Shown here: positions 7,838 through 29,317 of the stretch, in pieces
Layout of the letters: the number at the start of each line of letters is the position of its first letter
How positions within the stretch are numbered: the first letter of the stretch is position 1
Origin: a virus
Lineage: Duplodnaviria; Caudoviricetes
Direction: 5' to 3' (one strand)
IMG/VR virus record: IMGVR_UViG_3300037233_000021
Location: 1-54,787 of that record
DNA: 54,787 bases
Position numbers and translations under genes: made by a program
Notes under the pieces: generated by a model
Database searches by the model: none
Seen by the model: only the letters and a program-made list of their open reading frames with translations
What the model was told of the DNA's origin: nothing

Positions 7838-7873
7838 GTTTCTCTCCACTGTCAGCAATCGCTGCTGAGTTTG

Positions 7874-7886
7874 TAAGTCATTGATT
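7874..7886. promoter_or_regulatory. IHF-box-like site in an intergenic gap
   Basis: TAAGTCATTGATT; its reverse complement AATCAATGACTTA matches WATCAANNNNTTR. Confidence 0.4.
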
Positions 7887-8011
7887 CCACAGGTACATGC
7901 ACGTTTACGACTAAACCCGATATGAACGGGCACGAAACCGATACATTCCTGACTCTAACCGTCGCAAAAGTGAGCGCAATGATCTACGTATCCACTCTGC
8001 CTGTCGCTTCC

Positions 8012-8758
8012 TTATGCCTGGGTCACTCCGAACGCATTCGTGTTGAGCGGACCGCCGAGGGTCTGGTACTCCGTATAGAAGGTCGTCGTTGCCCGCGCGA
8101 GCGTGCCTGCCGGTGAGTACGTGCCACGGACGTCGCCCGTGATGTTCGTAGCCGGTGAGGTCGCATCTGCCTGGACCACTGTGCCAGCGTCAGCTGAGAC
8201 TGTGCCGGATACCATCTTGCTTCCTACCAGAAGTGAGCCTGGGAGTAAGGCGAAGCTCAAGCCAAGGACTGTGCCGAGGCTGACGCCGATGTTGCCGCTT
8301 GTGGTCGCCGTCGCTGTGACGCTGTGGACCGTGTAGAACGCTTTCTTCCCGGCGTCGATGTCTGAGCCTGTGCCGGTCAGGGTGATGAGTTCGCTCATCG
8401 CTGCGCCGTAGTAATCTGTGCCCTGGACCAGGAGGGTCGTGGTGTCCGTGCCGTCAGATGTCACTGTGACGTTGCGCGGGAAGTCGAGAGTTGCCACGCC
8501 GCCTGTGATCGTGATGCCGTTCGCCGAGGCCGCTGTCATAGGATTCGCGACGCCTGCGGTCATTACCGCTACGCCTGCCGTGATCAGCATGCTGGCTGCG
8601 ACCACTGCCGGGTTGCCGAGACCTTCGAACTGCTTGAGTGCTACCGGGACGCCGTTGAGCTGTCCGGCAGCCGAGACTGCGTTGCCCGCGCGAAGGTTGT
8701 CCGTGACGGATATACGATGCTGCGGGTACGTGAATGAACCGTTGAAGGGAGTAACCAT
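8012..8758 (-). CDS. Virion structural / capsid decoration-like protein
   Basis: LDFPRNVTVT..GTDYYG..SELIT..GKKAF motif; T/A/G-rich. Confidence 0.7.
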   Translation of the reverse strand: MVTPFNGSFTYPQHRISVTDNLRAGNAVSAAGQLNGVPVALKQFEGLGNPAVVAASMLITAGVAVMTAGVANPMTAASANGITITGGVATLDFPRNVTVTSDGTDTTTLLVQGTDYYGAAMSELITLTGTGSDIDAGKKAFYTVHSVTATATTSGNIGVSLGTVLGLSFALLPGSLLVGSKMVSGTVSADAGTVVQADATSPATNITGDVRGTYSPAGTLARATTTFYTEYQTLGGPLNTNAFGVTQA

Positions 8759-8843
8759 TTGAATTCCTTAGTATTTATGCCCGTAGACTGCCGGGGAACT
8801 GCAGCATGGAAACTACCATGATTTGGTTTGTGTTCTGCTTTCC

Positions 8844-8854
8844 ATAATACCACG
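8844..8854 (-). promoter_or_regulatory. Extended -10 promoter for the downstream structural genes
   Basis: CGTGGTATTAT (TGn-TATTAT) on the minus strand, back-to-back with the plus-strand promoter. Confidence 0.5.
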
Positions 8855-8856
8855 AT

Positions 8857-8885
8857 TTGACGCGGTGCCCGCCGCTCTGTACAAT
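8857..8885 (+). promoter_or_regulatory. sigma70 early promoter P1
   Basis: TTGACG-N17-TACAAT followed by AGGAGG RBS. Confidence 0.8.
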
Positions 8886-8908
8886 CCTCGCATCACTAGG
8901 AGGATCAC

Positions 8909-9106
8909 ATGGACCGCAACACGACAGCAACGATCACGACCCACGCCTACGACCGCGACTCGAAGTCGATGGTCCGCATCGAGGTATACCTGGAGATCGA
9001 TCTGGTGGCGCTCGCCACCCGCATGGGAAAGAAAGCCTTCGACAGCAAGTCGAAGAAGTCAATCATCTACGGCGGCACAGCAGTCGCCAAGGTCACACGC
9101 TCATGA
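8909..9106 (+). CDS. Small early hypothetical protein
   Basis: Strong RBS; ATGA coupling to the next ORF. Confidence 0.8.
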   Translation: MDRNTTATITTHAYDRDSKSMVRIEVYLEIDLVALATRMGKKAFDSKSKKSIIYGGTAVAKVTRS

Positions 9107-9237
9107 ACGTCTACACAGTATCCAAGAAGGTCCGCGCGCTCGTGTACTGGCTCGACACCAAGGGCTACTACTACACCGGCAACGTGGTCTGGAATCTCTT
9201 CTACCGCGCCCGCAAGGCCATCTACGGTGGCATATGA
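9103..9237 (+). CDS. Small early hypothetical protein (44 aa)
   Basis: MNVYTVSKKV..; ATGA overlaps on both sides. Confidence 0.7.
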   Translation: MNVYTVSKKVRALVYWLDTKGYYYTGNVVWNLFYRARKAIYGGI

Positions 9238-9353
9238 GCGCCCGCACAAAGGAAGTCCTCTACTGGGCGCTGGTAGCTGTGCTCACGGTGCTGTTCGTTC
9301 TTGCTGTGTCTGGCTCGGTGGACGGTGTCGGCGACATGGCAGTCTACGGGTAG
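9234..9353 (+). CDS. Small single-TM early protein (39 aa)
   Basis: MSARTKEVLYWALVAVLTVLFVLAV; ATGA coupling. Confidence 0.65.
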   Translation: MSARTKEVLYWALVAVLTVLFVLAVSGSVDGVGDMAVYG

Positions 9354-9354
9354 T

Positions 9355-9383
9355 TTGACACGACTCCCGAGAGCGCGTATAAT
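9355..9383 (+). promoter_or_regulatory. sigma70 early promoter P2 (perfect consensus)
   Basis: TTGACA-N17-TATAAT. Confidence 0.9.
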
Positions 9384-9406
9384 CCCGAACGTCACCTGGA
9401 GGTCAC

Positions 9407-9502
9407 ATGTCACGCAACTCCCTTCGCTCACTCAACGCCCTGGTCGCACGAATCGACGCGACCTTCTTCAAACTCATCCTTAAAATCGCAGGAGTCAAAT
9501 AA
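9407..9502 (+). CDS. 31-aa early peptide
   Basis: GGAGG RBS; MSRNSLRSLNALVARIDATFFKLILKIAGVK; TAATG overlap. Confidence 0.65.
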   Translation: MSRNSLRSLNALVARIDATFFKLILKIAGVK

Positions 9503-9825
9503 TGTCAGTCGCAGCACGCCAACTGGTAGATATGCTCGTAGTTCGTCGCTTGATCGACAGCGCAGCCAAACAGGGCTGGGCGCTCACGCACATCAGTGAC
9601 GGCGACGAGGAACACAAGGTAGACAGCACCGAGGAAGCGCTCGGGCTGATCTTCAACCTGGACGACGCGCAGCTGAGCTTCAAGCGCCTGGGTAAACGCA
9701 ACCTCGCCGATGTGATCGAGTCCATATACTCCTGGTGTAACAGGCTGGACGCTGGCCTCAAAGGCAACAGCGCGCAGCGCGACAGACAGGTGATGGAAAT
9801 TCTCAACTCACTGGAGATCAAATAA
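9502..9825 (+). CDS. Early hypothetical protein
   Basis: RBS and coupled start. Confidence 0.75.
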   Translation: MSVAARQLVDMLVVRRLIDSAAKQGWALTHISDGDEEHKVDSTEEALGLIFNLDDAQLSFKRLGKRNLADVIESIYSWCNRLDAGLKGNSAQRDRQVMEILNSLEIK

Positions 9826-9826
9826 C

Positions 9827-9889
9827 ATGGGACGCACACCCACAGCACCGTTCTACCTCAAGGTGGAACGCTTCGTGGTGCAGGCATGA
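9827..9889 (+). CDS. 20-aa early peptide
   Basis: GGAG RBS; MGRTPTAPFYLKVERFVVQA; ATGA overlap. Confidence 0.45.
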   Translation: MGRTPTAPFYLKVERFVVQA

Positions 9890-10101
9890 ACGCAGTAGAG
9901 ATGTACGGCGAGACGTTCTTCCGGGTGTACGGTAAGTACCCTGGTGCGAAGCGCTGGTCGCCGATGGACCTCCAGTCAGGCAGCTGCGTCGGCAACCTGA
10001 TATATGCGACCTTCTTCGACAGCGAGGCACAGGCTGATGCTGCGGTCGCTGAGGCAACCCGATTGAACCCCGAATGGTCATTTGAAACGAGGAAAGTATG
10101 A
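9886..10101 (+). CDS. Early hypothetical protein
   Basis: Coupled ORF chain. Confidence 0.75.
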   Translation: MNAVEMYGETFFRVYGKYPGAKRWSPMDLQSGSCVGNLIYATFFDSEAQADAAVAEATRLNPEWSFETRKV

Positions 10102-10337
10102 GCGCCAAGATCTACAACTTCGACGACTACAAGCGCAAGCGCATCCTGGAGGCTGCGGCCAAGCTCGAAGCTCGCGCGGCATACCTGCGCGCGAACAAGC
10201 GCGGCACACCCCGCACAGACGAGCAGGTGACTCTCGCCTGCACTGAGTACCAGGACGCCCTGCGCCAGTGGCAGGACAACCACATGGACGGCTCGGACTG
10301 CGGCTGCTCGAATGGGCAGAGCCGGTGGTTCCAGTGA
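10098..10337 (+). CDS. Early hypothetical protein
   Basis: Coupled ORF chain. Confidence 0.75.
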   Translation: MSAKIYNFDDYKRKRILEAAAKLEARAAYLRANKRGTPRTDEQVTLACTEYQDALRQWQDNHMDGSDCGCSNGQSRWFQ

Positions 10338-10618
10338 GCGAGTATAATGTCGGTCGCTACTTCACTCCAGGCGAGACTGGGCAGCTTGCCTGCTGCCTAT
10401 ACCGCGCGGGTCGCACCCGCCTGCACATCCTCGTGATTGAGTCATCCGGTGTGATCGTACTGACGCCGCGCCTGGACGAGGCCAAGTTCATCACGCCGCT
10501 GCTGCACAAGTCTGACCCGTACCCGCTTGACAGGGCCGTCAGGCGGTTCAGGGCTGCGGGCCGCACCCTGGGCATCACTGAGGGGGCGAAAGCCGAACTG
10601 GAGAGGGCTGCGTCATGA
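10334..10618 (+). CDS. Early hypothetical protein
   Basis: GTGA overlap start; coupled chain. Confidence 0.7.
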   Translation: MSEYNVGRYFTPGETGQLACCLYRAGRTRLHILVIESSGVIVLTPRLDEAKFITPLLHKSDPYPLDRAVRRFRAAGRTLGITEGAKAELERAAS

Positions 10619-10848
10619 AGGACCCAGGCAACCCTGACTTCTCGGACCTAGAGAACCTGGGGGATCTGCGAGGAGATCCCCTGGGGCCGGTGCATCAGGT
10701 AGCGGCTGGCAATGCCTTCTCCCCTGGTCCGCGTATGATTCCCTGCAGCCGGTGCAAAGGCACTGGCAACCATCCCTGCGGTCGCTGCTTCAAGTGCCAG
10801 GGCTCAGGGAAGATGCTGGCACCGAAGCGCGGTATGCGAATAGATTGA
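10615..10848 (+). CDS. Small protein with DnaJ-type zinc-finger repeats
   Basis: CSRCKGTG and CFKCQGSG (CxxCxGxG). Confidence 0.7.
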   Translation: MKDPGNPDFSDLENLGDLRGDPLGPVHQVAAGNAFSPGPRMIPCSRCKGTGNHPCGRCFKCQGSGKMLAPKRGMRID

Positions 10849-10873
10849 CACCCAGCAACCAACCCTGTACAAT
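10845..10873 (+). promoter_or_regulatory. sigma70 early promoter P3
   Basis: TTGACA-N17-TACAAT followed by ACTAGGAG RBS. Confidence 0.85.
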
Positions 10874-10897
10874 CCAACCTCCAACTAGGAGATCATC

Positions 10898-11104
10898 ATG
10901 CTACTCGCAATGTACGACACCAAGAAGCTCTGCAAGTCCCACACGGGCGAGCCCCTGCGCTACCGCGAAACCTCGATGTTCGGTACCGAGTACCGCTCTG
11001 ACGGCGTACTGACGGTGGCGCACCGCCCGCACATCACAGGCACGGGTCGCGAATGGTTCGCTCGCATCACGATGAAGGGCGGGTTGATCGCGAAGGTCGA
11101 ATAG
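10898..11104 (+). CDS. Early hypothetical protein
   Basis: RBS; GEPLRYRETSMFGTEY..GREWFA motif, which I recall from small phage early proteins. Confidence 0.8.
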   Translation: MLLAMYDTKKLCKSHTGEPLRYRETSMFGTEYRSDGVLTVAHRPHITGTGREWFARITMKGGLIAKVE

Positions 11105-11112
11105 AGTATAAT
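11084..11112 (+). promoter_or_regulatory. sigma70 early promoter P4
   Basis: TTGATC-N17-TATAAT. Confidence 0.6.
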
Positions 11113-11135
11113 CGAATCTCAACAGCTTGGAGGCT

Positions 11136-11405
11136 ATGCCAATGAAGAGCGCTTTTGAAACCGGGCGCAGCGAACACTGCGCCGAGCAGATGACTCAGGG
11201 TCAGGCTGCTATCGTCCTCACCGGGTTCGCCCCGGTAGGTTCCAAACTCTGGATTGAGGCCCGCGCGGTATTTAAACGCATGCGCGAGCGCTACGCTGTA
11301 CAGGACGCCTGTGCAGAGGCTTACCACTTCGGCTTAAAAGATGGCCGCAAGTCGAAGCGCCTGGAGATCAGCTGTGAACAGATCAAAGCGGGCCAGCGCT
11401 CATGA
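11136..11405 (+). CDS. Early hypothetical protein
   Basis: GGAGG RBS before the ATG at 11136. Confidence 0.7.
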   Translation: MPMKSAFETGRSEHCAEQMTQGQAAIVLTGFAPVGSKLWIEARAVFKRMRERYAVQDACAEAYHFGLKDGRKSKRLEISCEQIKAGQRS

Positions 11406-11620
11406 ACACCTTCCAAGACCTCAACGCCGGTGACCGCGTGCGCTTCATGCGGACCAACGGCATAGGGCGCAACGGAGTCGAATGGGTCGAGGCCACCGGC
11501 ACCGTGCTCAAGTACCTAGCCTTCGCGAACCACGTAGTCGTGGCGGTTGCAGGAGGAAAGGGCAACCCCTACGTAGTAGACGCCAAGAACTTCAAGGCAG
11601 TCGTGAGGAGGATCGCATGA
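11402..11620 (+). CDS. Early hypothetical protein (small beta-barrel-like)
   Basis: LNAGDRVRF start; coupled. Confidence 0.75.
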   Translation: MNTFQDLNAGDRVRFMRTNGIGRNGVEWVEATGTVLKYLAFANHVVVAVAGGKGNPYVVDAKNFKAVVRRIA

Positions 11621-11784
11621 ACACCATAGATTTTGAGGCTCCCCTGATGACCCTCGCTGACGCCTTCCGCGACCTGGATCAGGCCGAGTCAGAGTCAATC
11701 AAGTACCGCCAGGACGCTGAATCCGCACGCGAGGAGCGCGCGAGAACCGCCGCCAAGAAATACTACGACCGACAGGAGAAATAA
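11617..11784 (+). CDS. Early hypothetical protein
   Basis: GAGGAGG RBS; ATGA overlap. Confidence 0.7.
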   Translation: MNTIDFEAPLMTLADAFRDLDQAESESIKYRQDAESAREERARTAAKKYYDRQEK

Positions 11785-11785
11785 A

Positions 11786-11965
11786 ATGTTCAGCTGGATG
11801 TTCTGGAAGATCCCGATCACTGGTGTACGCATCCGTTACACCGGGCCGATCAACTCTGACCGCGCTCGCGCGTCGCTACAGGGAAAGCTCTGTGTTGCTC
11901 GGGTGTACGCTCCCCCCGCCATCCTGCAGAAGAAGCTGAAGAAGCTGAAGAAGGCCACATCATGA
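11786..11965 (+). CDS. Early hypothetical basic protein (59 aa)
   Basis: AGGAG RBS; MFSWMFWKIP..KKLKKLKK. Confidence 0.6.
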   Translation: MFSWMFWKIPITGVRIRYTGPINSDRARASLQGKLCVARVYAPPAILQKKLKKLKKATS

Positions 11966-12141
11966 AACACAAAGACACACTGCGTCGCGAAGCCATCGAG
12001 CGCCTGGAGCGCACACCTACCAGCAGCGGCAGCACGCGCCGCGAGCGCAATGGCATCTCTGAGACCGAGGACGAGGTTGTCGCCCGCCGCAACGCGGAGG
12101 CCGCGCGCCTGCGCGAGAAGTTCGGGAAGCTTATCAAGTGA
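11962..12141 (+). CDS. Early hypothetical protein (59 aa)
   Basis: MKHKDTLRREAIERLE..; coupled both sides. Confidence 0.65.
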   Translation: MKHKDTLRREAIERLERTPTSSGSTRRERNGISETEDEVVARRNAEAARLREKFGKLIK

Positions 12142-12377
12142 CAGCGCGCAACGTAACTCATGGCATGAAGGTCCAGGAGCGGCACCGTAAGAACGCCGCA
12201 GGCGATATGGTCCACTACGTCGAGATGTGGTGCCCGGTGGAGCGAGTCCTGCCGCCGCCAGTCGATCTGCCTACCAAGGTAGTGTTCGAGGAACCTCCCC
12301 CTGAGATGACGATCCGCACCCGTCTCAGGTTCGAGGCACGTACCCTGTCCGAGATGATCCTGCCCTGGAGAAAGTAA
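12138..12377 (+). CDS. Early hypothetical protein
   Basis: GTGA overlap. Confidence 0.65.
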   Translation: MTARNVTHGMKVQERHRKNAAGDMVHYVEMWCPVERVLPPPVDLPTKVVFEEPPPEMTIRTRLRFEARTLSEMILPWRK

Positions 12378-14369: not shown

Positions 14370-15089
14370 TTATTTACTCAGCTGCTTCACGAGCTGACGC
14401 TGTTCGATGTCGATCATCTCTTTGTGCGTGACGAAGTCACCAGTTGGGACCGCCACCACGTCTGGAACTACACACATGTCTTCGAGTGCCTGCCCACAGT
14501 TGTCGCCTAGAGTTTTCTTCACGAACGAGATGTCGCACGCTACTGACTGGGCAGCCAGAGGAGCATTTGACTCGCAGAAGAATTTGACTAGTTCGAGCTT
14601 CGCGCAGTCATCGTCCTTCCTGGACTTGCCGAACGATCCGCCCGCGATCAGGAGCTGTAGGCCAGCGCCGTCCGTGAACCGGCAAGACGCTGTCGTCTGA
14701 CCGTAACCTGCGATGGCCGTCATGGCGAGCCGAGGGGACGTGAAGTTCGAGCCAGTCTGGGTCACGCCGTTGTTGACCGCTGAGCCGCCTTTGCCGCCTT
14801 CAGCGACTGCCTTAGCATCGCCACCTGTACCACCCTGAGCTACACCACCCTGAGCTACAGAGCTAGACTGCGCTGCGCCGCCCTGGATGACTGCGCCGTT
14901 ACCTGATCCCAGGCCATTGACCGTGGTCGTGCTGGTGCTGGTGCTGGTAGCTGTATTGTTGTTGCCAAACACGTTGCCGCTCGCGACGTTTCCGGTGCCG
15001 GTGTTGTCCAGCGTTGGAGGAACCTGTGCGAAGGCTGACCCAGCGCACAAGAGAACTAATGCAGCGGCTATTCTGACAGTGTTTTTCAT
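14370..15089 (-). CDS. Secreted protein with G/S/T/N-rich linker and Cys-rich C-terminal domain
   Basis: Signal peptide MKNTVRIAAALVLLCAGSAFA; GAGAGG RBS. Confidence 0.75.
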   Translation of the reverse strand: MKNTVRIAAALVLLCAGSAFAQVPPTLDNTGTGNVASGNVFGNNNTATSTSTSTTTVNGLGSGNGAVIQGGAAQSSSVAQGGVAQGGTGGDAKAVAEGGKGGSAVNNGVTQTGSNFTSPRLAMTAIAGYGQTTASCRFTDGAGLQLLIAGGSFGKSRKDDDCAKLELVKFFCESNAPLAAQSVACDISFVKKTLGDNCGQALEDMCVVPDVVAVPTGDFVTHKEMIDIEQRQLVKQLSK

Positions 15090-15186
15090 TAATGTGTACC
15101 TCTCAACCAGTATGCGCTGATTGGTCTGTGGTTTACCGCACATAGCTGCAGGCCACTGATATTACTCAAACCTTAGTTGAAACTCA

Positions 15187-15651
15187 CTACACCACGGCCT
15201 TACAAACGGCAGGGGTTAGAGCGCTTTCGACGCCCAGAGAGTTGAAGGAGACCATCGCGATGCAGTGATTGCCCAGCGGGATATCGGTGAACTCGTAGAG
15301 GAGCTGGCCGAGCCCAAGGGATACCACGGTGACGGAGTCGAGATAAATCCTCACCCCGGCGAGGTTCGCGAGTGCCGAGCCGTCCGTGTTCATAGTTGGG
15401 TCCGCCCAGGCTACCGTCATGACGCCGGTCGTAGGCGCGGGCAGGGTGACTACAGGAGGGATGACGACAATGGGAACAACGACCGGAGGGATGACTACTG
15501 GTGGGATGACCACAGGAGGCACGATAACAGGCGGAAGGATAACGTGCGGGGGCGATGTTACGACCGGAGGGGCAGGCGTGGCTGGAGTGCTTGAGCCTCC
15601 ACATCCGGTGAGTACCAGGATAGTAGCCGTGCACGGCACGAACCAACGCAC
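15187..15651 (-). CDS. Lipoprotein with Pro-rich stalk and fibronectin type III-like domain
   Basis: Lipobox LTGC; (V/I)xPP repeats; VAWADPTMNTDGSALANLAGVRIY..FNSLGVES. Confidence 0.75.
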   Translation of the reverse strand: MRWFVPCTATILVLTGCGGSSTPATPAPPVVTSPPHVILPPVIVPPVVIPPVVIPPVVVPIVVIPPVVTLPAPTTGVMTVAWADPTMNTDGSALANLAGVRIYLDSVTVVSLGLGQLLYEFTDIPLGNHCIAMVSFNSLGVESALTPAVCKAVV

Positions 15652-17065: not shown

Positions 17066-17202
17066 TTCTTCACTACCTTTGCGCCATTGCGCCAGCCGGG
17101 TTGCTCACGTTTGATTGCGGCGAGTTCCTTCGCCTCGTAGCGCTGGCCTCCTAGCTTCCAGCGGCCAACAGTCGTCTTGGGTTTGGTATCACGGTCTATC
17201 AT
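17062..17202 (-). CDS. 46-aa basic protein
   Basis: GGAGG RBS; ATGA overlaps both sides. Confidence 0.55.
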   Translation of the reverse strand: MIDRDTKPKTTVGRWKLGGQRYEAKELAAIKREQPGWRNGAKVVKK

Positions 17203-17684
17203 GACGATGTCTCCTCCATAAAGTCTTGCGGCTGCTCGTGCACATACCGAACCTTCGCGGTGCAGGTAGCTGTATCGAAGTCACGCGGTTCGAGCATGGA
17301 AGGATCTGGGCTGTCAAGCCGCGCACCTTGGCGCATCGACCAGTCTACCGGCAGCGGCCCTGGGCGTCCCAGCACACCATCCCACTCGTCTGCGTACTGG
17401 TGATCGGCGTCAGCAGGATGCTTGCCGCGATCCGCGCAGTTCGACATCTGACACGTCGGCTTCATCCAATGCGTCTTGATGCCGCGAGCCCAGCTGGCGG
17501 TGTACAGGACGCACAGCGCAATGATGCCCCACTGGGAATGCTCGATGGCAGTCCATAACCAGAACGGCTCGCTGGCGAGGCCGAAGATGGGTGCCCACTT
17601 AGGTGCTCGCCCCATCGCCAGCCAGATAGCTATCACGCCGGGGACGCAGATGCCGAGTTGCTGAAACCAGTGCAGATAGTTCAT
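17199..17684 (-). CDS. Membrane protein with ~3 N-terminal TM helices (PnuC-like short repeat) and a soluble tail
   Basis: GVIAIWL..WAPIFGLASEPFWLW..QWGII. Confidence 0.65.
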   Translation of the reverse strand: MNYLHWFQQLGICVPGVIAIWLAMGRAPKWAPIFGLASEPFWLWTAIEHSQWGIIALCVLYTASWARGIKTHWMKPTCQMSNCADRGKHPADADHQYADEWDGVLGRPGPLPVDWSMRQGARLDSPDPSMLEPRDFDTATCTAKVRYVHEQPQDFMEETSS

Positions 17685-17803
17685 AGGTGGTACACCATAA
17701 ATACCGCTATCGCGACCGGGATCAATGCGGGCCATCGCATGCAGACCCCGATCATCCCAGGAGATGATGCGAGGTTTGTGACTACATCGAGGAACATCTT
17801 CAT
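17681..17803 (-). CDS. 40-aa membrane peptide (RWP motif)
   Basis: MKMFLDVVTNLASSPGMIGVCMRWPALIPVAIAVFMVYHL. Confidence 0.55.
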   Translation of the reverse strand: MKMFLDVVTNLASSPGMIGVCMRWPALIPVAIAVFMVYHL

Positions 17804-17804
17804 G

Positions 17805-17912
17805 CTAGACCCTGAAGGCTGTGTAACACGCGCCACCGACAGCAATGACGGCGGCGAGTATCGGCCAGCGAAGGACGACGTTGACGATGAACGAGTTGAG
17901 CGGAAGGTACAT
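17805..17912 (-). CDS. 35-aa membrane peptide (RWP motif)
   Basis: MYLPLNSFIVNVVLRWPILAAVIAVGGACYTAFRV; starts 1 nt after the barrel stop. Confidence 0.55.
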   Translation of the reverse strand: MYLPLNSFIVNVVLRWPILAAVIAVGGACYTAFRV

Positions 17913-17913
17913 C

Positions 17914-18390
17914 TCAATTCCCCTTGAGGTTCCAGCCAACCCAGTAGCTAATGTACGCCTGCATGCCGAAGCCATTCATGCCTGGAGTTGAGCCGGTCAC
18001 TACGGAGCGTCCGTCCCATCCGTCACCCCAATGGTGCTCGTCCACTGCCTCAACACCTACGGTCACGATACCGTTACTGAAGTGCCGGTCGATGCGCGCG
18101 CCGAACGCCGGGATCACCTTGTCGTTGTACGACAGATGGTTTCGGTCGTCGCTGAGAGTGACGCTGCCATACGTGTCGAACGTGAAGTTATGGACCTTGA
18201 ACCAGTCAATGCCCTGGGTGATCTTGCCGATGTACAGCACGTTGCCAGTCTCGGGCGTGTTCTGCATCACGCTACTCGGAGCGATCACAGCACCCCAACT
18301 CGAACCTGGGTATGCGAGAGGGCCGTCAGCGAACGCAGCAGACGAGGCGAGGATCGCTACGACTGCAAAAGCTATCTGTTTCATGAACAT
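17914..18390 (-). CDS. Putative outer-membrane beta-barrel protein
   Basis: Signal peptide (..SSAAFA); alternating amphipathic strands; aromatic-rich last strand AYISYWVGWNL. Confidence 0.65.
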   Translation of the reverse strand: MFMKQIAFAVVAILASSAAFADGPLAYPGSSWGAVIAPSSVMQNTPETGNVLYIGKITQGIDWFKVHNFTFDTYGSVTLSDDRNHLSYNDKVIPAFGARIDRHFSNGIVTVGVEAVDEHHWGDGWDGRSVVTGSTPGMNGFGMQAYISYWVGWNLKGN

Positions 18391-18397
18391 CATTTCC

Positions 18398-19468
18398 TTA
18401 AGTTGATGGGACAATTGAATCGAAATTATAGCGCTGAACCTTATTCCATGTCAAGATGGTTTTGCGGAGCAGGATGATCTCTACAAAGCTTCTCAGGAAC
18501 GCGAACGTGTTCAGGTAAGACAGCCAGTAAAACACCGGAACTTTGCACAGCACATCCCATCGCTTGGTCTTGAGCGCGATCATCACGCCGACGCCCAGGT
18601 AGCACGCCAGATCAACCAAGACGCCCAGCGCTACCCACTTGATGGGGAACGCCCAGCAGAGAAGTGGCAGCGTAAAGAAACGATTGAGCAGCAAGGTGTC
18701 TAGCACGAGGTACATCATGTACCAGTCCACTGGGCGCTTGGGCGCTAGAGAAAACGTCTTGTGCTTGAGGACAATCTGCCAGAAGCCACGGTTCCACCGC
18801 ATGTTCTGCTTCATGAAGTCCTCGAACGTGCTCGGGTCTTGAGTGATGACCCCTGCCCCGTGGATATACTTGATCTTGCCCTGCATGCGATGCACCTGGA
18901 GGGTGAGGTCCATATCTTCAGCGAGCGTGCCCGCATCGATGTTCAGCTTCATCAGCTCTGACAGCCGGTACATCGAGGCACAGCCCGGTGAGACCGTGAT
19001 CATGTTGAAGTTGGCCTGCCCGCCCTTGATGACCTCGTGCGAGAAGGTGTACTCATACGCCCGCAGAGCGCCCCAGATGTGGTTGCTCTTGGCAGACTTC
19101 ACCTGACCGATGAGCAGCGCGGCGTCAGGGTTCTGCTCTGCCGCCTCATACATGACGTTGAGAAACTGCGACTCCACCTGGGAGTCCGCGTCCACGAACA
19201 CCACCCACTGGTAGCGGTCCTGAAGCCTGAAGTGTGCCAGCCCGTAGTTCTGAGCGTGCGCTTTGCATCCGCCCTTCTCGGGCACGGTGTAGACGGTGAC
19301 GCCCTTGGCGCGCGCGAGCGCCGCCGTAGCATCTGACGACATGTCGTCCACAACGTAGATGTCGCTGCGATTGAAGCCTGCAGCACGCAGGGATGCTATC
19401 GTGCCTTCAATGACCCGCTCTTCGTTGAACGCGGGAATAAGCACGCAGATCTTGGGCTCGGGTGTCAT
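18398..19468 (-). CDS. Processive GT2 glycosyltransferase (PgaC/IcaA/cellulose-synthase-like)
   Basis: IPAFNEE, VVDD, FVDADS, AED and QNMRW (D,D,D,QxxRW); C-terminal TM helices; start set at 19468 because the upstream extension overlaps a tRNA. Confidence 0.9.
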   Translation of the reverse strand: MTPEPKICVLIPAFNEERVIEGTIASLRAAGFNRSDIYVVDDMSSDATAALARAKGVTVYTVPEKGGCKAHAQNYGLAHFRLQDRYQWVVFVDADSQVESQFLNVMYEAAEQNPDAALLIGQVKSAKSNHIWGALRAYEYTFSHEVIKGGQANFNMITVSPGCASMYRLSELMKLNIDAGTLAEDMDLTLQVHRMQGKIKYIHGAGVITQDPSTFEDFMKQNMRWNRGFWQIVLKHKTFSLAPKRPVDWYMMYLVLDTLLLNRFFTLPLLCWAFPIKWVALGVLVDLACYLGVGVMIALKTKRWDVLCKVPVFYWLSYLNTFAFLRSFVEIILLRKTILTWNKVQRYNFDSIVPST

Positions 19469-19474
19469 GCCAGG

Positions 19475-19484
19475 AGTGTAGCAC
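19475..19484 (-). promoter_or_regulatory. Extended -10 promoter of the GT2 operon (likely leaderless)
   Basis: GTGCTACACT 6 nt upstream of the ATG, no SD. Confidence 0.5.
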
Positions 19485-19495
19485 AAAAGGTTCGG

Positions 19496-19567
19496 TGCCG
19501 GGTCTCTGAATCGAACAGAGGAATGGCAGTTTACAAAACTGCTGCTGTGCCACTGAGCCAACCCGGC
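19496..19567 (-). tRNA. tRNA-Thr(TGT), copy 2
   Basis: GCCGGGT/ACCCGGC acceptor, GCAGT-TTTGTAA-ACTGC anticodon arm, TTCGATT T-loop; CCA not fully encoded. Confidence 0.9.
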
Positions 19568-19571
19568 GAGA

Positions 19572-19597
19572 TGGAGCGGAGCCGGGGCCAGCCCCGC
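19572..19597 (-). pseudogene. tRNA-Gly acceptor-stem remnant (microhelix with U73-CCA)
   Basis: GCGGGGC-TGGCCCCG-GCTCCGC-T-CCA; ends identical to tRNA-Gly at 20155-20228. Confidence 0.75.
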
Positions 19598-19645
19598 TTG
19601 TTCAGCTACCGGCGCTGTTCACGTTACATGAACGGAGCCAGAAAA

Positions 19646-19720
19646 TGGCTCCGAGAGATGGGATCGAACCACCGACCACGCCATTAACAGGGGCGCGCTC
19701 TACCGCTGAGCTATCCCGGA
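19646..19720 (-). tRNA. tRNA-Asn(GTT)
   Basis: Cloverleaf, CTGTTAA loop, G73-CCA; C31-U39 mismatch. Confidence 0.92.
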
Positions 19721-19734
19721 ATGTACTTAAGACT

Positions 19735-19902
19735 CGGCGCGCGCACAGGTGTTGGCCGCTCTACAACACTTCGGACGCCATGCGCGAACCGTCCCGGAGT
19801 TGAGGTCCGCCCTATCTCGCCGCACAGGCGATGGGCTCCTTGGCCCAGGCAGGCTTACTTATTTCAGCCCGCTCAATGCGCAACGCCAACCGTCTCCCGG
19901 CG
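19735..19902 (-). ncRNA. Candidate structured RNA between tRNA-Ala and tRNA-Asn
   Basis: Several consecutive GC-rich hairpins in a tRNA spacer. Confidence 0.35.
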
Positions 19903-19905
19903 AAC

Positions 19906-19980
19906 TGGTGGACCGCCTCGGACTCAAACCGAGCAGGCTAACTCCGTGCAAGGGAATTCCGGGTACTCTGCCCGCAGCCC
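19906..19980 (-). tRNA. Atypical tRNA-Ala(TGC)
   Basis: G3:U70 acceptor, A73-CCA, CTTGCAC loop; degenerate D-arm; TTTGAGT T-loop. Confidence 0.75.
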
Positions 19981-19998
19981 AGTGCGTCTATCATATCA

Positions 19999-20072
19999 TG
20001 GCGGGCCGGTAAGGACTCGAACCTTAATGAACGGTTTTGGAGACCGTGATCCTACTATTGGATTACCAACCC
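19999..20072 (-). tRNA. tRNA-Trp(CCA)
   Basis: ACGGT-CTCCAAA-ACCGT, TTCGAGT, G73-CCA. Confidence 0.9.
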
Positions 20073-20074
20073 GG

Positions 20075-20146
20075 TGCCGTGTCTCTGAATCGAACAGAGG
20101 AATGGCGGCTTACAAAACCACTGCTGTACCACTGAGCCAACACGGC
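20075..20146 (-). tRNA. tRNA-Thr(TGT), copy 1
   Basis: GCCGTGT/ACACGGC acceptor, TTTGTAA loop. Confidence 0.9.
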
Positions 20147-20154
20147 GAAAAAAG

Positions 20155-20228
20155 TGGAGCGGAGCCAGGGAATCGAACCCTGATACCCAGTTTGGAAGAC
20201 TGATGCACTGCCAATATGCCAGCCCCGC
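20155..20228 (-). tRNA. tRNA-Gly(TCC)
   Basis: CTTCCAA loop, U73-CCA. Confidence 0.92.
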
Positions 20229-20240
20229 TCGCGAACAAAA

Positions 20241-20318
20241 TGGTCTGTCGGGAAGGATTTGAACCTTCGACCCTCCGGTTCCAGACCGGATACTCTAACC
20301 AGACTGAGCTACCAACAG
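20241..20318 (-). tRNA. tRNA-Pro(TGG) with unusual anticodon loop
   Basis: C1:G72, A73-CCA; loop TCTGGAA (C33, A37). Confidence 0.88.
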
Positions 20319-20427: not shown

Positions 20428-21336
20428 CTAGGTTCCCGCGCTTCCCCAGCAGCCCCTGTAGTCCGACCAGCCGAAGCTGTAACGCTCGCGCGCCTTGTAC
20501 CGCATGTTTCCTGTCTCGAACTCCCCTTCAAGGCCGCGCTCGACTTTCTTTCGCACGAAGTGCTTGAGACCGTCTGCCACGTCCGTCTTGATGTACCACC
20601 CAATGGGGTCCGTCAAGTAGTGGTTGACCGACACGCCGCCCGCATACGTCCCGATGGACTTGAGGGCGTTGATGTCGTTGTCGCCAGTCGCCGGACGGAA
20701 GTCGCTGAACAGCAAGCGCTGTGCAACGTACTTGTTACCGTTCGGGACGATCAGGCGCTTCGGCTTCGCCGCTATGCGAATGCCGCGCTCGTCAACCCAG
20801 AGGCCAATCGCGATGTCAGCAGCTTCCAGCGCGCTCTCGCACAGGTCGGGCTGAGTCGTGAACATGTTCGCTTGCACGCCGCCGCCCCAGATGGGGTGCG
20901 AGATGCTGAATAGTGCAACACCGTCGCCGCCCGGATAGGACGCGCTGAACCCATTGTTCAGGACGTTCGCACCAGTGACTTCCTTGGTGTTCTGCAAACC
21001 ACGGGCCAGCGACTTGCTGTACTTGCCCGCGATTGAACCGTAGAGGCCGTCCTCTTCCGCTTCCTGCGTGATGGCGAATGCCAACGCTACCGTGTTGTGT
21101 ATGTACCGAGCGACGTAGGACTCTGCGCCTTCGTCGAACGACACGCCTGCGCCTTCAGCTTTCACTGGGGCGGTGCCGAGACCGGCCATCAACACATCCT
21201 CTTCATACGCCTTGACAGACGTATTGATGTCGAATATGTCGCGCCACTCTTCGGGATAGCGGTTGTACTCCATGCCGAACACGGTGTTCAGGCCGAGCTG
21301 CAACTGCTTCTTGAATAGACTGCGGTTCATTGCCAT
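20428..21336 (-). CDS. Major capsid protein
   Basis: MAMNRSLFKKQLQLGLNTVFG..AFAITQEAEED..KARERYSFGWSD motifs. Confidence 0.92.
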   Translation of the reverse strand: MAMNRSLFKKQLQLGLNTVFGMEYNRYPEEWRDIFDINTSVKAYEEDVLMAGLGTAPVKAEGAGVSFDEGAESYVARYIHNTVALAFAITQEAEEDGLYGSIAGKYSKSLARGLQNTKEVTGANVLNNGFSASYPGGDGVALFSISHPIWGGGVQANMFTTQPDLCESALEAADIAIGLWVDERGIRIAAKPKRLIVPNGNKYVAQRLLFSDFRPATGDNDINALKSIGTYAGGVSVNHYLTDPIGWYIKTDVADGLKHFVRKKVERGLEGEFETGNMRYKARERYSFGWSDYRGCWGSAGT

Positions 21337-25115: not shown

Positions 25116-27698
25116 TTATATCTGACTACCGGACTGCGCGGGGGAACCACCTAGAGGAGATGGTGGTGGACCCTGGGGAGTCGGCGCGAGCGCCTGACCG
25201 GTCGGGGGAGTGGCGGCAGGAGGATCTGACGGCAGCTGGATGTCATGGGCGTTCCTGATGTGTCCTTCGCGCATCAGCTTAGCGCGGAGGATGGCGTCCT
25301 CACGCTTGATCTTTGCCTTCGCTTCCGTGTTCTTGCGCTTCTCGTCGCCCTGGAACGCGAGCTGCTTCATGGCTTCTCCAGCCTGCGCCGACTTCGTAGC
25401 CTGATCTGTCTTGGCCTGTACAGCCTGCGCGTTGGCTGCATCCTCTTGCTGAGACTGCTGCTGTGGATTCTGCTGACCAGGAGGCGGAGGCTGCGGCGCT
25501 GGCGCGGGCAGCGAGTTGACCTTGATGGCAACCGCCGAAGCGATCATGTTCTGCAGGTCCGGCGAGATGGTCGTGCCGGTAGGATCATGCATGTCGAACG
25601 GCGGCAGCGGTATGCCCATCGTCTTCTCGACCTCTACCTTGTACTGGAACGCTAAATGCTCTGCGACGTGCGCAGCCATGATCATCTGGAACTGCTGCTG
25701 CAGCGGAAGCGGCAGAGCAGGCATGGTCTTCGTCATGAAGTCCTGATGTATCGCGATGTGTGCGGTGTGCAGCTGATCGTAGAACGCGCGCACCGGTGTG
25801 TTCGCCATGATCGCCATGTTCTCGCTGACAGGGTCCAGCTCAGTGTATGCGTCGCTCGACATGTAGGTATCCACGTCATGCACGCGCAGAGCCCGGAGCA
25901 TCTCGCGGTGAGCTTTGCGCTTGGCCTTCTCGGAGTACAGGCTCGGGTCTGACGTGATGAGTCCGAGTACGCTCTGTGCCTGCGCGATCCGCATCGTGCT
26001 CGACCAGATATTAGGATCACTGACAGGGCGTATTTCGTGAGTGATGGTGTTGTTGAAGTCGTCGCCGATCTTGAAGGCGTCGAACTGCTTCGACTTGATC
26101 GGGTACTTCTCGTCAGCCATGTACTCTGAATTCAGCGTGTAGAGGATGCCGAACTCTTCACCCGCACTCGTGTGCAGGCGCTTGTGGATAGCGGAGAACA
26201 CCTTACTGCCCTGCTCAATGATGGCGAGGGTTGTTCCCACCGGGCCAGTGTTCGGCGATTCGCCGGTCATAGCCTCAGTCGTCGATGAGAACGATTGAAT
26301 ACCCTCAACCAATAACTTCAGTGTACTGAACAACGCAGGCGTGGGCTCTTTGAACGGCGGAGTGTAGAAGCCCTTCGCTAGGTCTTCTGCTGATGCGTCA
26401 ACATCAACCCACTCGCCAGCCTTGTATCTAATCTCGCCCGCCTGCGACAGAGACTTAGTGCGGAAGCCTCCCTGAAGAGAGGACGTAAGTGATCCATCCA
26501 ATAGAAGCCGTAAAGCTCCGCCAGCCGCTGCCCCCAGTGAGCCGATGAGATGGAGTAATCCAAAGCCATAGAATCCAAAACCAGGGAGATATTTATAGTG
26601 GACGAACCAGATGCGCTTGCGGCGCTTCGCGTCATCGATCTTCCAGTTGCGGCGGATAGACAGGACTTCTCCTGACTCGCGCTCAAACACAATGATGTAC
26701 GGGTATGCGAATTCATTTTTCTTCTGCCCTGTCTTGTCGTAGAAACCAGTCGGCACCTTCGCCCACGGCGTAATGGTATCCTTCTGATCTATAGGTTGGG
26801 ACTCGTTGACGAAGTTGAAGTCGATATGCATCTCGCAAATTTCATAGGTGCTATCGTCTTCGTGACGCACAGCATTTCGCGTGTCAGAATGATCCAACAG
26901 CATGCGAGGATCGTCAGCGGACTGCGATGCATTGTACGGCTGCCTCCAGATGTTCTTGGGTTCAATGAATTCTCCATCAGCAATCGCTCGCTTCAGGTCG
27001 TTGCCGGTCATGTAGTAGCGGTGCGTGTAGCGGCTCGCGTCCTCAAGACTCATGGCGTCGTAAGGAACTATGAAGTCTTCGACCCGCAGGAAGCGCGCAA
27101 CGGGCATCTCTAGCTGGATGTCGTAGAAGCACTTCTTGAATGCTGACCCAGCGAACGGCAGATAGAACAGCATCTGGTCCACGTTCCAGAAGTACTGCTT
27201 ATCCAGCTTCGTCAGCTGGCGGTTCATGAAGGTCTCGATGCGATCCGCTTGGTCTTCCTGCTCCTCGTCCGAGTCATCTTCTGCGACGACCTTGACCGGA
27301 CCCTGCGGAGGGAATACTTCAGAGATGGACCGCGACTGGAACTGCACCATAGCCTCAGCGAGCGCCGGGTGCGTGACAGTAGAAGCTCCCTCGAACACAG
27401 TCTCGTCTGACGGGATGTCCTGAAGCCCTATGATTTCAAGCCCTTTCTTCAGGCGACGCATGTGATCGCGGCGCGACCCTTCATCCACCACCAAATACTC
27501 TTTCAGCTTGTCGCCGAGCAGGCGGCGATGATTCTCGTCCAGTGCGTCGGCAAGGTTGGCGTCATGCTTGCGCTGCGCCATCGACTCCTTCTTGAAGTCT
27601 GCGTCCTGGTCAGGCTCGCCAACCTCCACGCTGCCATCCTCATTGTGCTGGATGTCAGATGCTTCTTCTGTGGGTTGTTCTTGTGCTTCGAGCGCCAT
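25116..27698 (-). CDS. Portal protein
   Basis: GASTVTHPALAE, LPFAGSAFKK, FVHYKYLPGFGFYGFG, PVSDPN motifs; follows TerL. Confidence 0.92.
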   Translation of the reverse strand: MALEAQEQPTEEASDIQHNEDGSVEVGEPDQDADFKKESMAQRKHDANLADALDENHRRLLGDKLKEYLVVDEGSRRDHMRRLKKGLEIIGLQDIPSDETVFEGASTVTHPALAEAMVQFQSRSISEVFPPQGPVKVVAEDDSDEEQEDQADRIETFMNRQLTKLDKQYFWNVDQMLFYLPFAGSAFKKCFYDIQLEMPVARFLRVEDFIVPYDAMSLEDASRYTHRYYMTGNDLKRAIADGEFIEPKNIWRQPYNASQSADDPRMLLDHSDTRNAVRHEDDSTYEICEMHIDFNFVNESQPIDQKDTITPWAKVPTGFYDKTGQKKNEFAYPYIIVFERESGEVLSIRRNWKIDDAKRRKRIWFVHYKYLPGFGFYGFGLLHLIGSLGAAAGGALRLLLDGSLTSSLQGGFRTKSLSQAGEIRYKAGEWVDVDASAEDLAKGFYTPPFKEPTPALFSTLKLLVEGIQSFSSTTEAMTGESPNTGPVGTTLAIIEQGSKVFSAIHKRLHTSAGEEFGILYTLNSEYMADEKYPIKSKQFDAFKIGDDFNNTITHEIRPVSDPNIWSSTMRIAQAQSVLGLITSDPSLYSEKAKRKAHREMLRALRVHDVDTYMSSDAYTELDPVSENMAIMANTPVRAFYDQLHTAHIAIHQDFMTKTMPALPLPLQQQFQMIMAAHVAEHLAFQYKVEVEKTMGIPLPPFDMHDPTGTTISPDLQNMIASAVAIKVNSLPAPAPQPPPPGQQNPQQQSQQEDAANAQAVQAKTDQATKSAQAGEAMKQLAFQGDEKRKNTEAKAKIKREDAILRAKLMREGHIRNAHDIQLPSDPPAATPPTGQALAPTPQGPPPSPLGGSPAQSGSQI

Positions 27699-29317
27699 TA
27701 ACCTGTGCCTATGCCTTTTACTTGACGGGGCCTGAATAGCCTGATTGTTCCCGCTTCTTCCTCAAACTGTACGCCGTCGCGCTTACGAAGCCACATCAAA
27801 CCCATGAGCAAGCAATCGACCCAGTCGTCGTTCTTTCCTTTCGGAAAGTTCGCGCACTCGTCAATGACCGGCTTCGAGAACAGCTCCTGCGGCAGGTAGA
27901 ACAGGCAGCCCTTCTCCAAGGAGAGGCTGGCCGTGTGCGCCCGCGCGATCTTGTCCCCGTCCCCGTCGATCTTCACCGCCAGAACCGGGAGGTTTGCGCG
28001 ACGCAGTTCCTGGATCAACGAGTGGCCGCTGGCCTTCTTCTCGATCAGAATCCAGTCGGGATTTGCCTTATCATTCGAGACCTTAGCGAGCTTTCGTAGA
28101 ACCGGGAACGACACTTTGTCCTTCCAGGCACCCAGCAACATCGCACAATTTCGGGTCGGCTTCTTAATTGGTCTATCGACCATTCTACCATCTGGCAGAC
28201 GTACCTTGGACATTACCTCCGGCGTGTATCGGAAGATGCCGAGCGTCAGGCGAGCGCTGAAGTCATTCTCCTCCCCCTCCTCGAACGCCGTATCGTACAG
28301 CTGGATCTTCTCAAAGAACTCAGGCAGCTCGGCCTGAGCACCTGGGTTCGGAGCCCATGGCGGGTTGACCCACGCCTGCCAGTAATTGCGCTTGAGGATG
28401 TAGCCACCCTCCTTGGTCGGGTCTTGCTGGAACTGGGCGGAGTAGTCGGCCTCAGTCATGCCTTCCATGTACTCATCGGTGGCTTCTTGAGTCAGCCGGT
28501 GCGGGCTCAGCAGCTCGCCGTCATTCTTACGCGGGTCCATGTAGATCAGTCTGCCCTGGCTGCCGTCCTTCGTGGGGAGTCTGGTAGTGCAGCGCGTCAG
28601 CCGCTTGAACTGGTTCGGTAAACACAGGTGAACGTACTTCTTGCCTTCTGTGTCCAGCAGGTGACCAGTCAGATCCAGGGAGTGCGAGCGCTGTGCGATC
28701 AGCACCCGGCGTGTCTGAGATGGATTGTTGACGCGCGTGCGCAGCGGGCCGGTGTACCAACGGATTGCCTTCTCTCGGGTGACGTCGCTGTTGATGTCCT
28801 GAAGGTTGTGCGGATCGTCAACGATATGGTAGTCGCCGCCGAACCCAGTCAAGCGTCCAGCGACCGACACGGCCATGCGCTGACCACCGGCGTTGTTGAC
28901 GAACAGGTTCTTCTCGTTCTGGTCTAGCTTCAGGATGATGTCTGAGCCGAAGCGGGCACGATACCAGGGGCTCTGAATCAGATCTCGCATGCGCAGAGCG
29001 TCGCGAGTCGCGAGCCCTATTTCGTAGGAGCCGGTGAGGAACTTGATCTTTGGATTGTTGGCCCAGATCCAGCTCGGCCAGAGCACGGACACCAGCGTTG
29101 ACTTGAGGAAGCGCGGCGGGATGGATACGATGAGATTCTTGATGTCGCCCAGGTACGTGTAGACCAGATGGTCACACAGGGCATCGAGATATGGCTCCCA
29201 CTGCAGCTCTTCGTTCTCGATGACGTGCCATGCGTCTTTGGAGAACCTGCGGAGGTTCCTGCGGCACAGCTCCGCGCCCATCTCGGTGAACGTGATCTCC
29301 GGGGTCTTGAAGTCCAC
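27698..29317 (-). CDS. terL: Terminase large subunit
   Basis: IPPRFLKS Walker A variant, IVDDPH Walker B, YDTA and DDWVD nuclease motifs. Confidence 0.95.
   Translation of the reverse strand: MDFKTPEITFTEMGAELCRRNLRRFSKDAWHVIENEELQWEPYLDALCDHLVYTYLGDIKNLIVSIPPRFLKSTLVSVLWPSWIWANNPKIKFLTGSYEIGLATRDALRMRDLIQSPWYRARFGSDIILKLDQNEKNLFVNNAGGQRMAVSVAGRLTGFGGDYHIVDDPHNLQDINSDVTREKAIRWYTGPLRTRVNNPSQTRRVLIAQRSHSLDLTGHLLDTEGKKYVHLCLPNQFKRLTRCTTRLPTKDGSQGRLIYMDPRKNDGELLSPHRLTQEATDEYMEGMTEADYSAQFQQDPTKEGGYILKRNYWQAWVNPPWAPNPGAQAELPEFFEKIQLYDTAFEEGEENDFSARLTLGIFRYTPEVMSKVRLPDGRMVDRPIKKPTRNCAMLLGAWKDKVSFPVLRKLAKVSNDKANPDWILIEKKASGHSLIQELRRANLPVLAVKIDGDGDKIARAHTASLSLEKGCLFYLPQELFSKPVIDECANFPKGKNDDWVDCLLMGLMWLRKRDGVQFEEEAGTIRLFRPRQVKGIGTG

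Follow-up and report, generated by a model that had tools for sequence, protein, structure and literature searches.

Phages are so far known to add side groups to the surface glycans of their hosts, and algal viruses to spin hyaluronan or chitin. In bacteria, the systems that the locus described here resembles include PgaABCD of Escherichia coli and IcaADBC of staphylococci, which make poly-β-1,6-N-acetylglucosamine, and the BcsA-BcsC and NfrB-NfrA systems, in which an inner-membrane glycosyltransferase of family 2 (GT2) is genetically paired with an outer-membrane β-barrel. The locus lies in a virus record of IMG/VR (IMGVR_UViG_3300037233_000021; 54,787 bases, with an estimated completeness of 69%), the whole of which is called the window below. 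Its cassette has three conserved components, namely a GT2, an exported protein that is predicted to form one half of a β-barrel (the half-barrel), and one small membrane peptide, and not the five that a sequence-only reading of the locus had grouped into a synthase-export module. The core of that reading is supported by the analyses reported here, and we judge that this minimal synthase-dependent cassette of a phage probably produces a glycan and exports it in much the way that had been described; a promoter of its own, a protein with about three transmembrane segments, and a second peptide did not hold up as conserved parts. Two of the components are unannotated, and the cassette as a whole is mostly phage-borne.

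The gene content of the longer relatives of this cassette matches that of the Pga and Ica systems, the common set being a membrane GT2, a small membrane partner, a CE4 deacetylase, and an outer-membrane exit. The window phage departs from these systems in that it lacks a deacetylase and in that its GT2 has no N-terminal transmembrane helices and is not a PgaC/IcaA equivalog, as the best NCBIfam match, PgaC_IcaA (TIGR03937), reaches 87.5 bits against a curated cut-off of 422.3 and covers residues 4-266 only. The candidate exit protein of the phage is a chain of ∼137 residues with six strands and without a TPR domain, whereas PgaA is a large single-chain porin; PgaA (4y25) was found as a low-ranking structural match only, which leaves the phage protein outside the PgaA-type porins. 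The phage peptide is single-helix, and no similarity to PgaD or IcaD could be detected in it. No cyclic di-GMP element turned up in the cassette, and none was looked for. Barrels of the BcsC and NfrA type are single chains on long periplasmic TPR domains, and the corresponding synthases carry PilZ or MshEN-type domains; none of these features is present in the phage cassette. The hyaluronan and chitin synthases of chloroviruses are also virus-encoded processive GT2 enzymes, which coat the infected cell with polysaccharide, but this system belongs to a eukaryotic virus, operates at a single membrane, and has neither an exit pore nor a peptide partner. A full-text literature search brought up no account of a self-contained cassette of a bacterial virus that both polymerizes and exports a polysaccharide.

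From its catalytic residues and the homology of its membrane region, the GT2 is predicted to belong to the class of membrane-integrated processive synthases. Its membership in family 2 (GT-A fold) is given by Pfam matches that are all above the curated cut-offs: PF13641 (3.8e-24, 86.4 bits, cut-off 27), PF00535 (1.1e-21, 77.9 bits, cut-off 23.3), PF13632 (1.1e-17, 64.9 bits, cut-off 27), and Chitin_synth_2 (7.4e-12, 45.1 bits, cut-off 27). The motif set of processive GT2 synthases consists of D, DxD, (T)ED, and QxxRW. In an alignment of 39 relatives, residues D42, D93, D95, E184, D185, Q221, R224, and W225 are invariant, which bears out the D,D,D,QxxRW signature that had been noticed in the window sequence. 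The cytoplasmic GT-A domain begins at residue ∼5, with no transmembrane segment at the N terminus, and hydrophobic segments are found only beyond residue ∼248, in the C-terminal interfacial and transmembrane region.

When the GT2 family profile was compared with the sequences in the PDB, the solved structure matching the longest stretch of it was the chlorovirus hyaluronan synthase 7sp7, a remote similarity in which positions 45-322 of 354 align with residues 155-436 (E 1.2e-10). BcsA was matched over positions 5-234, in the glycosyltransferase domain and the QxxRW region, and chitin synthases over positions 59-283 (68-283 for chitin synthase 1), and the single-sequence match of the GT2 to BcsA covers 179-297. 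Because the profile alignments extend past the glycosyltransferase domain, the homology includes the polymer-channel region of the solved synthases. With polyprenyl-phosphate GT2 enzymes (the GtrB-like 5ekp, DPMS, and ArnC), by contrast, the alignment is confined to roughly the first 130 positions of the profile.

To analyze the association of this GT2 with the other components, we used the GT2 alignment to scan three collections and searched every fetched locus with hidden Markov models (HMMs). Relatives were called close when their HMM score exceeded 380 bits, at ∼41% identity or more, and 39 distinct sequences are of this type, the window excluded. A half-barrel gene is present downstream of the GT2 in 37 of these 39 loci, usually within 100 nt; in two loci (L181 and L189) it is 1.8 kb away, with an acyltransferase gene between, and one of the exceptions (L086) is a contig that ends 30 nt past the GT2. 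No half-barrel gene was found in the 129 loci whose GT2 is distant (∼30% identity), which come mostly from metagenome-assembled genomes (MAGs) of Gemmatimonadota and other bacteria. Directly after the half-barrel gene, a gene for a small single-pass membrane protein (35-140 residues) is present in all 34 loci with room for it, and these proteins have M/L-R/K-W/F/Y-P just before the helix. A neighborhood search, which the sequence-only reading had named as a check, thus ties the half-barrel to the GT2 across related loci.

The cassette is mostly carried by phages. All 25 IMG/VR contigs with a GT2 relative are of the close type and carry the cassette, and the records include ones of 336, 358, 211, 122, and 108 kb; a terminase match is present in three of these five large records, among them the 358-kb record, which has terminal repeats and is rated 100% complete. 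When prokaryotic genomes, one for each species, were scanned, 272 GT2 relatives were obtained, and only two among the best 80 were close. One of these is on a contig of 17 kb with 46% GC that had been binned as Polaromonas, and the other on a 92-kb contig, with flanking housekeeping genes, from a MAG titled Candidatus Adlerbacteria. In tblastn searches against deposited phages, the GT2 gave distant matches (<30% identity) over the glycosyltransferase domain only, and the half-barrel protein gave no match. The contig binned as Polaromonas (L004) holds the half-barrel and peptide pair twice within positions 7099-12345, as near-identical copies that flank a 1186-residue secreted galactose-oxidase-like protein with PKD domains.

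In many loci with ∼50% identity, the operon continues with genes for a ∼115-residue protein, a CE4 deacetylase, and a GH16 hydrolase. Pfam confirmed CE4 (PF01522) in four of the four proteins tested and GH16 in two of two, and the ∼115-residue protein is weakly L,D-transpeptidase-like (YkuD, E 0.0084), under the Pfam threshold. The latter protein contains a G-C-I-N-V motif and is encoded between the peptide and CE4 genes in L091/L175, L089, L102, and other loci; in L103 its gene comes right after that of the GT2, without a half-barrel gene. The CE4 and GH16 genes of the relatives amount to a gene content like that of pga and ica and thereby strengthen the case for a polymer. Taken with the acyltransferase genes and with an apparent LysM-like segment in distant relatives, a label read from the sequence by eye, the CE4 genes hint at an acetylated, possibly N-acetylglucosamine-containing polymer that is trimmed outside the cytoplasm, whereas GH16 fits a β-glucan equally well.

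The same relatives could be taken to indicate that the cassette makes no free surface polysaccharide and serves instead to remodel peptidoglycan or the envelope during the phage cycle, for example in lysis timing or cell-wall protection, as the CE4 family includes peptidoglycan deacetylases and the weak YkuD-like match and the LysM-like segment would suit such a role. We hold this to be highly improbable. Searches of the whole window with local models detected none of the CE4, GH16, and YkuD-like genes, the YkuD match misses its threshold, and we know of no role in peptidoglycan synthesis for a membrane GT2 with QxxRW.

The GT2 could also be a non-processive lipid or carrier glycosyltransferase that makes a glycolipid or, as in serotype-converting phages, a bactoprenol-linked sugar with which O-antigen or cell wall is modified, with the small proteins being unrelated morons or flippase-type helpers. 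Several results weigh against a polymer synthase in this respect: QxxRW-type GT2s also include lipid glycosyltransferases, a GtrB-like PHROG matches residues 6-117, the GT-A half of the protein (8.4e-9), and weak matches were obtained to Glyco_transf_21 in Pfam (5.9e-9) and, over the full length, to CruG in NCBIfam (5.1e-6). The distant matches also contain GT2s of jumbo staphylococcal phages, some of which are annotated as glycolipid synthases, and the window GT2 is a short protein that has no N-terminal transmembrane helix. The strongest and longest homologies are nevertheless to polymer synthases, the membrane region included, and an obligatory secreted barrel-like partner together with frequent CE4, GH16, and acyltransferase genes fits a polymer better, so that we regard a lipid-directed enzyme as distinctly unlikely. 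The phage gtrABC cassettes for serotype conversion likewise include a phage-borne GT2 that alters the cell surface, but the GT2 of the window contains QxxRW and is homologous to synthases in its membrane region, it is accompanied by a barrel-like protein and a very small peptide, and no homologue of GtrA or GtrC was found among its neighbors with Pfam or PHROG. A role in DNA glycosylation, as in the Carin-5 paper, was considered and rejected because the GT2 is membrane-embedded and is partnered with secreted proteins.

The half-barrel protein has an A-F-A cleavage-type signal-peptide site and no match in Pfam, PHROG, or NCBIfam. An exhaustive search produced a family of 87 representatives, and the relatives in a large protein collection are all annotated as "hypothetical." Many members have ∼145-160 residues, and others of 250-300 residues or longer match the family twice and are therefore tandem repeats. 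The family profile gave only chance-level matches to PDB sequences (E ≥ 0.27), and a Pfam search of 47 members gave a single match, to DUF481 (3.3e-5), with nothing recurrent. The neighbors of the protein by language model include PagL-like, OMP_b-brl, and Phage_OMP clusters, and alternating hydrophobic and polar residues can be read along its strands over 13-15 residues.

The AlphaFold2 (AF2) model of the monomer, made from a 47-sequence alignment, has six strands of 8-15 residues and a predicted local distance difference test score (pLDDT) of 91.6. A two-repeat relative (P0140, 25-sequence alignment) was modeled with 12 strands at a pLDDT of 91.8. For the latter model, Foldseek returned 98 matches with E ≤ 1e-3; those listed are all membrane β-barrels, with BrkA first at 1.2e-7, and the top matches are 12-strand domains of autotransporters and intimin. 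Alignment with VIA-align gave Z values of 13.1 for BrkA, 12.6 for PcoB (190 of 198 residues), 11.3 for KdgM (164 of 171 residues), and 11.2 for VhGalP (199 of 210 residues). The two-repeat relative therefore superposes on PcoB and on the porins KdgM, NanC, and VhGalP over almost all of their length; these are single 12-strand barrels, some of them passing acidic oligosaccharides, and they differ in that sequence similarity is absent (identity 5-12%), in that they are single-chain proteins of uptake, and in that they have no tie to a synthase.

When two copies of residues 20-156 of the window protein were modeled together, a score of 0.72 was obtained in three of three runs, compared with 0.00 for the best of three controls. 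The runs have at least 91% of their contacts in common, the pLDDT of the partner is at least 82, and the contacts are reciprocal, with the first strand (27-35) of each copy lying beside the last strand (142-151) of the other, so that a ring of 12 strands is closed. By these models the protein is predicted to form a two-chain, closed 12-strand barrel and to be located in the outer membrane, the features of an outer-membrane barrel being present by prediction only. The sequence-only reading had taken this protein for a barrel while warning that it might be too small for a monomeric pore. Both points find an answer in the models: the single chain of ∼137 residues is modeled as a half-barrel only, and the concern about pore size is met because the predicted barrel has two chains, with the two-repeat relatives forming 12-strand barrels.

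For another family, the idea of a half-barrel dimer has been published before, in a preprint of October 2026. The cyanophage outer-membrane proteins of IPR056410 have six strands, and modeling there predicts that two subunits form a 12-strand barrel; their contexts, as far as the available part of that paper goes, are phosphate acquisition and virion assembly, with no link to a GT2 synthase (10.64898/2026.10.24.761521). A Phage_OMP cluster (PF24653 / IPR056410) is among the language-model neighbors of the half-barrel, at 0.93, and at E ≤ 1 PF24653 matched none of the 47 half-barrel family members and none of five phage records including the window.

Several observations weigh against an outer-membrane pore. 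The fold matches of the monomer are middling, with Z values of 8.3-9.5 to the OmpA, OprF, NspA, and PagL barrels and a best Foldseek match, the BcsC barrel, at E 0.059, which are at or little above the background for models without a clear match. A terminal aromatic residue is the usual signal for barrel assembly; the C terminus of the half-barrel protein (W-N-L-K-G-N) follows an aromatic-rich last strand with an N-L-K-G-N tail and is thus non-canonical. In the calibration of the dimer score, 20 of 30 proteins that are solved as one-chain pairs attained the mark, as did one of 23 that are solved as single chains; this calibration applies only approximately to the half-barrel, for which an alignment of our own was used. 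In L103, the second exception to the linkage, there is no half-barrel gene in the 3.9 kb after the GT2. A two-membrane envelope of the host is an assumption. The GT2 family, the catalytic residues, the linkage, the folds, and the dimer were computed here, and all of the structures are predictions.

Further points of this kind come from small bacterial genomes. The half-barrel domain is present in 5 of 301 genomes (0.5-1.2 Mb) of the class to which the MAG titled Candidatus Adlerbacteria belongs, and three of these five matches are strong. A QxxRW-type GT2 is encoded beside the domain in two of the three strong cases. In one (L165, 19-1926), the domain shares an open frame with the GT2 that precedes it, a GT2 in which N-terminal helices are present, and no M-R-W-P gene comes after it. 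In the other (L166, 832-2232), a 466-residue protein with a GT2 gene adjacent to it consists of a membrane anchor, the apparent LysM-like segment, a Pro-rich linker, and two half-barrel repeats; P0171 and P0190 resemble this protein. Bacteria of the candidate-phyla-radiation type are commonly regarded as having no outer membrane. It is therefore possible that the domain needs no classical outer membrane, that these contigs are mis-binned, or that the domain acts elsewhere. The occurrence of the GT2-domain partnership in a second GT2 lineage strengthens the functional link and at the same time weakens the claim of an outer-membrane pore.

The alternative that these observations favor is that a polymer is made but that the signal-peptide protein is a surface or periplasmic β-sheet protein that binds, anchors, or organizes the glycan, or that it inserts in another layer or membrane. 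Such a protein would suit the GT2 fusion and the anchored, LysM-like form of the small genomes as well as the unusual C terminus and the modest monomer matches. Against it stand the amphipathic strands, the closure of the two-repeat relatives as 12-strand barrels like the membrane barrels that they match, the predicted dimer, which closes in the same way, and the chance that the small-genome contigs are mis-binned. On balance we consider a non-pore role rather unlikely and retain an outer-membrane exit as the preferred reading of the half-barrel.

The third conserved component is pep1, in which an M/L-R-W-P motif precedes a hydrophobic helix. Like pep1, pep2 has R-W-P followed by a hydrophobic helix, but this second copy was found only in the window, in the closely related locus L001, and in duplicates of L001. 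The twin RWP membrane peptides of the earlier claim thus reduce to one conserved peptide, present in the 34 loci described above, and one that is specific to a lineage. No Pfam or NCBIfam match was obtained for pep1, pep2, or a 98-residue relative; peptides of 35-40 residues are hard to detect. The 161-residue membrane protein, which had been counted as the ∼3-transmembrane part of the module, was dropped as a component: neither L002 nor any of the more distant loci contains it, and in L001 (2495-2911) it stands behind an inserted gene and has a different N-terminal half. This protein and its L001 counterpart share the motif C-x3-C-A-D-R-G-K-H-P-A-D-A-D-H, and their N-terminal halves look unrelated.

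In the mechanism that we favor, the GT2 would reside in the inner membrane, polymerize a β-linked sugar from a nucleotide sugar, and move the growing chain across the membrane by a channel of its own, in the manner of BcsA, hyaluronan synthase, chitin synthase, and PgaC. The 35-residue M-R-W-P peptide, which is doubled here, would be an accessory subunit of the synthase in a role comparable to that of PgaD or IcaD, and may supply in trans the N-terminal helix that the GT2 lacks, a possibility suggested only by the lack of such a peptide gene in the one case (L165) in which the GT2 has helices. The exported half-barrel would pair head-to-tail with a second copy, and the resulting 12-strand barrel would pass the polymer across the outer membrane. 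Related cassettes extend this core with CE4 and GH16 genes and, in some cases, with an acyltransferase gene, the window phage having the core only. The production and identity of the polymer, the use of the barrel as its outer-membrane exit, and the binding of the peptide to the synthase are what we infer from the data above. The benefit to the phage would presumably be the masking of receptors against superinfection, or the clumping or protection of infected cells.

The five open reading frames (ORFs) that had been claimed as a unit (GT2, signal-peptide protein, pep1, pep2, and 161-residue membrane protein) are real and lie on the minus strand (Table 1), and their gene order recurs across dozens of independent contigs, which is more than chance. 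They are tightly coupled, as had been proposed: the first three intergenic gaps measure 13, 1, and 1 nt, and at the last junction the two genes overlap in ATGA. The proposed end of the unit at position 17199 does not stand, because ATGA overlaps carry on into two more small genes (17202-17062 and 17065-16826), and the coupled block is therefore not bounded there.

A promoter-like motif ahead of the unit was not recovered either. The promoter scan, which gave two sites in 4 kb compared with 1.4 expected, found none upstream of the GT2; the only strong site is inside the 3′ end of the GT2 gene, 40 nt upstream of the start codon of the half-barrel gene. This internal 12/12 site was dropped as a conserved feature because the hexamers at the corresponding place in the closest relatives, L001 and L002, depart from the consensus. 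A tRNA-Thr gene, the final one of a six-tRNA array, precedes the start of the GT2 by 25 nt, and the GT2 may be co-transcribed with that array. One RNA library contained a 190-nt contig that matches positions 18145-18334 with no differences, inside the half-barrel gene and downstream of the internal promoter-like site. The same library contained two short tRNA-like pieces with mismatches, and it did not cover the other genes, which shows nothing. The 190-nt contig is a weak hint that the half-barrel gene is transcribed, weak because DNA carry-over is possible in an RNA library.

Table 1. Coordinates of the cassette genes and of other features of the window
Feature	Position	Strand	Basis or remark
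GT2, 356 aa, processive-synthase type	18398-19468	-	Pfam, motifs, profile homology
Signal-peptide half-barrel protein, 156 aa (~137 aa mature)	17914-18384	-	AF2 model, homodimer prediction
pep1, 35 aa, single-pass membrane peptide	17805-17912	-	Sequence; conserved third component
pep2, 40 aa, paralogue-like second M-R-W-P peptide	17681-17803	-	Sequence; lineage-specific
161-aa membrane protein, Cys/His-rich C-terminal motif	17199-17684	-	Weak match to phrog_2421 (9e-5)
Sigma-70 consensus TTGACA-18 nt-TATAAT, 12/12	18425-18454	-	Inside GT2 3′ end (conserved C-terminal codons)
Six-tRNA array (Pro-TGG, Gly-TCC, Thr-TGT, Trp-CCA, Asn-GTT, Thr-TGT)	19494-20318	-	Between capsid-gene terminator and GT2
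Strong terminator-like hairpin	20400-20375	-	Behind capsid gene, before tRNA array
Major capsid protein	20428-21336		Window gene
Portal	25116-27698		Window gene
Large terminase	27698-29317		Window gene
Primase/helicase	37821-39641		Window gene
Tail-fibre-like gene	2143-3795		Window gene

The terminase of the window has at most 41% identity to that of any deposited phage, its best relatives being Roseobacter phages, and megablast of the window against deposited phages found no close DNA relative. DNA near-identical to that of the module is present in peat and soil metagenome runs from several studies. Within the six-tRNA array, tRNA-Thr(TGT) occurs twice, and a 278-nt stretch between tRNA-Trp and tRNA-Asn (19721-19998) has no tRNA or Rfam match. 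On the 3′ side of the cassette, the minus strand encodes a lipoprotein-like exported protein with a P-P-V-V repeat region (15187-15651), to which a protein of L001 (4107-4526) clearly corresponds, and a signal-peptide protein rich in Gly, Ser, and Thr (14370-15143). A very large ORF on the same strand (49644-54785), of at least 1713 residues and open at the window end, matches only PHROGs of unknown function (phrog_18222 and phrog_9854) and might encode a virion-associated giant protein; because of its size, an N4-like identity of the phage was considered.

In its fullest form, the proposal is that phages of ∼50-358 kb carry largely phage-specific minimal exopolysaccharide machines, with a two-chain pore and a synthase that has lost its N-terminal helices and is completed by the peptide, by which infected cells become coated with glycan. 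We regard this form as tentative and as falling somewhat short of probable; if it holds, the single-chain two-repeat barrels would be duplicated descendants or ancestors of the half-barrel. Should the cassette work in the proposed way, no smaller synthase-dependent secretion system would be known, which would make it attractive for structural studies and for synthetic biology, and its exit protein would be a natural two-chain transmembrane β-barrel that bears on proposals of barrel growth by duplication. The peptides would be a new class of micro-protein partners for glycan synthases, and phages of peat and soil could, by making such a polymer, change the aggregation, biofilm matrix, and receptor access of the cells they infect.

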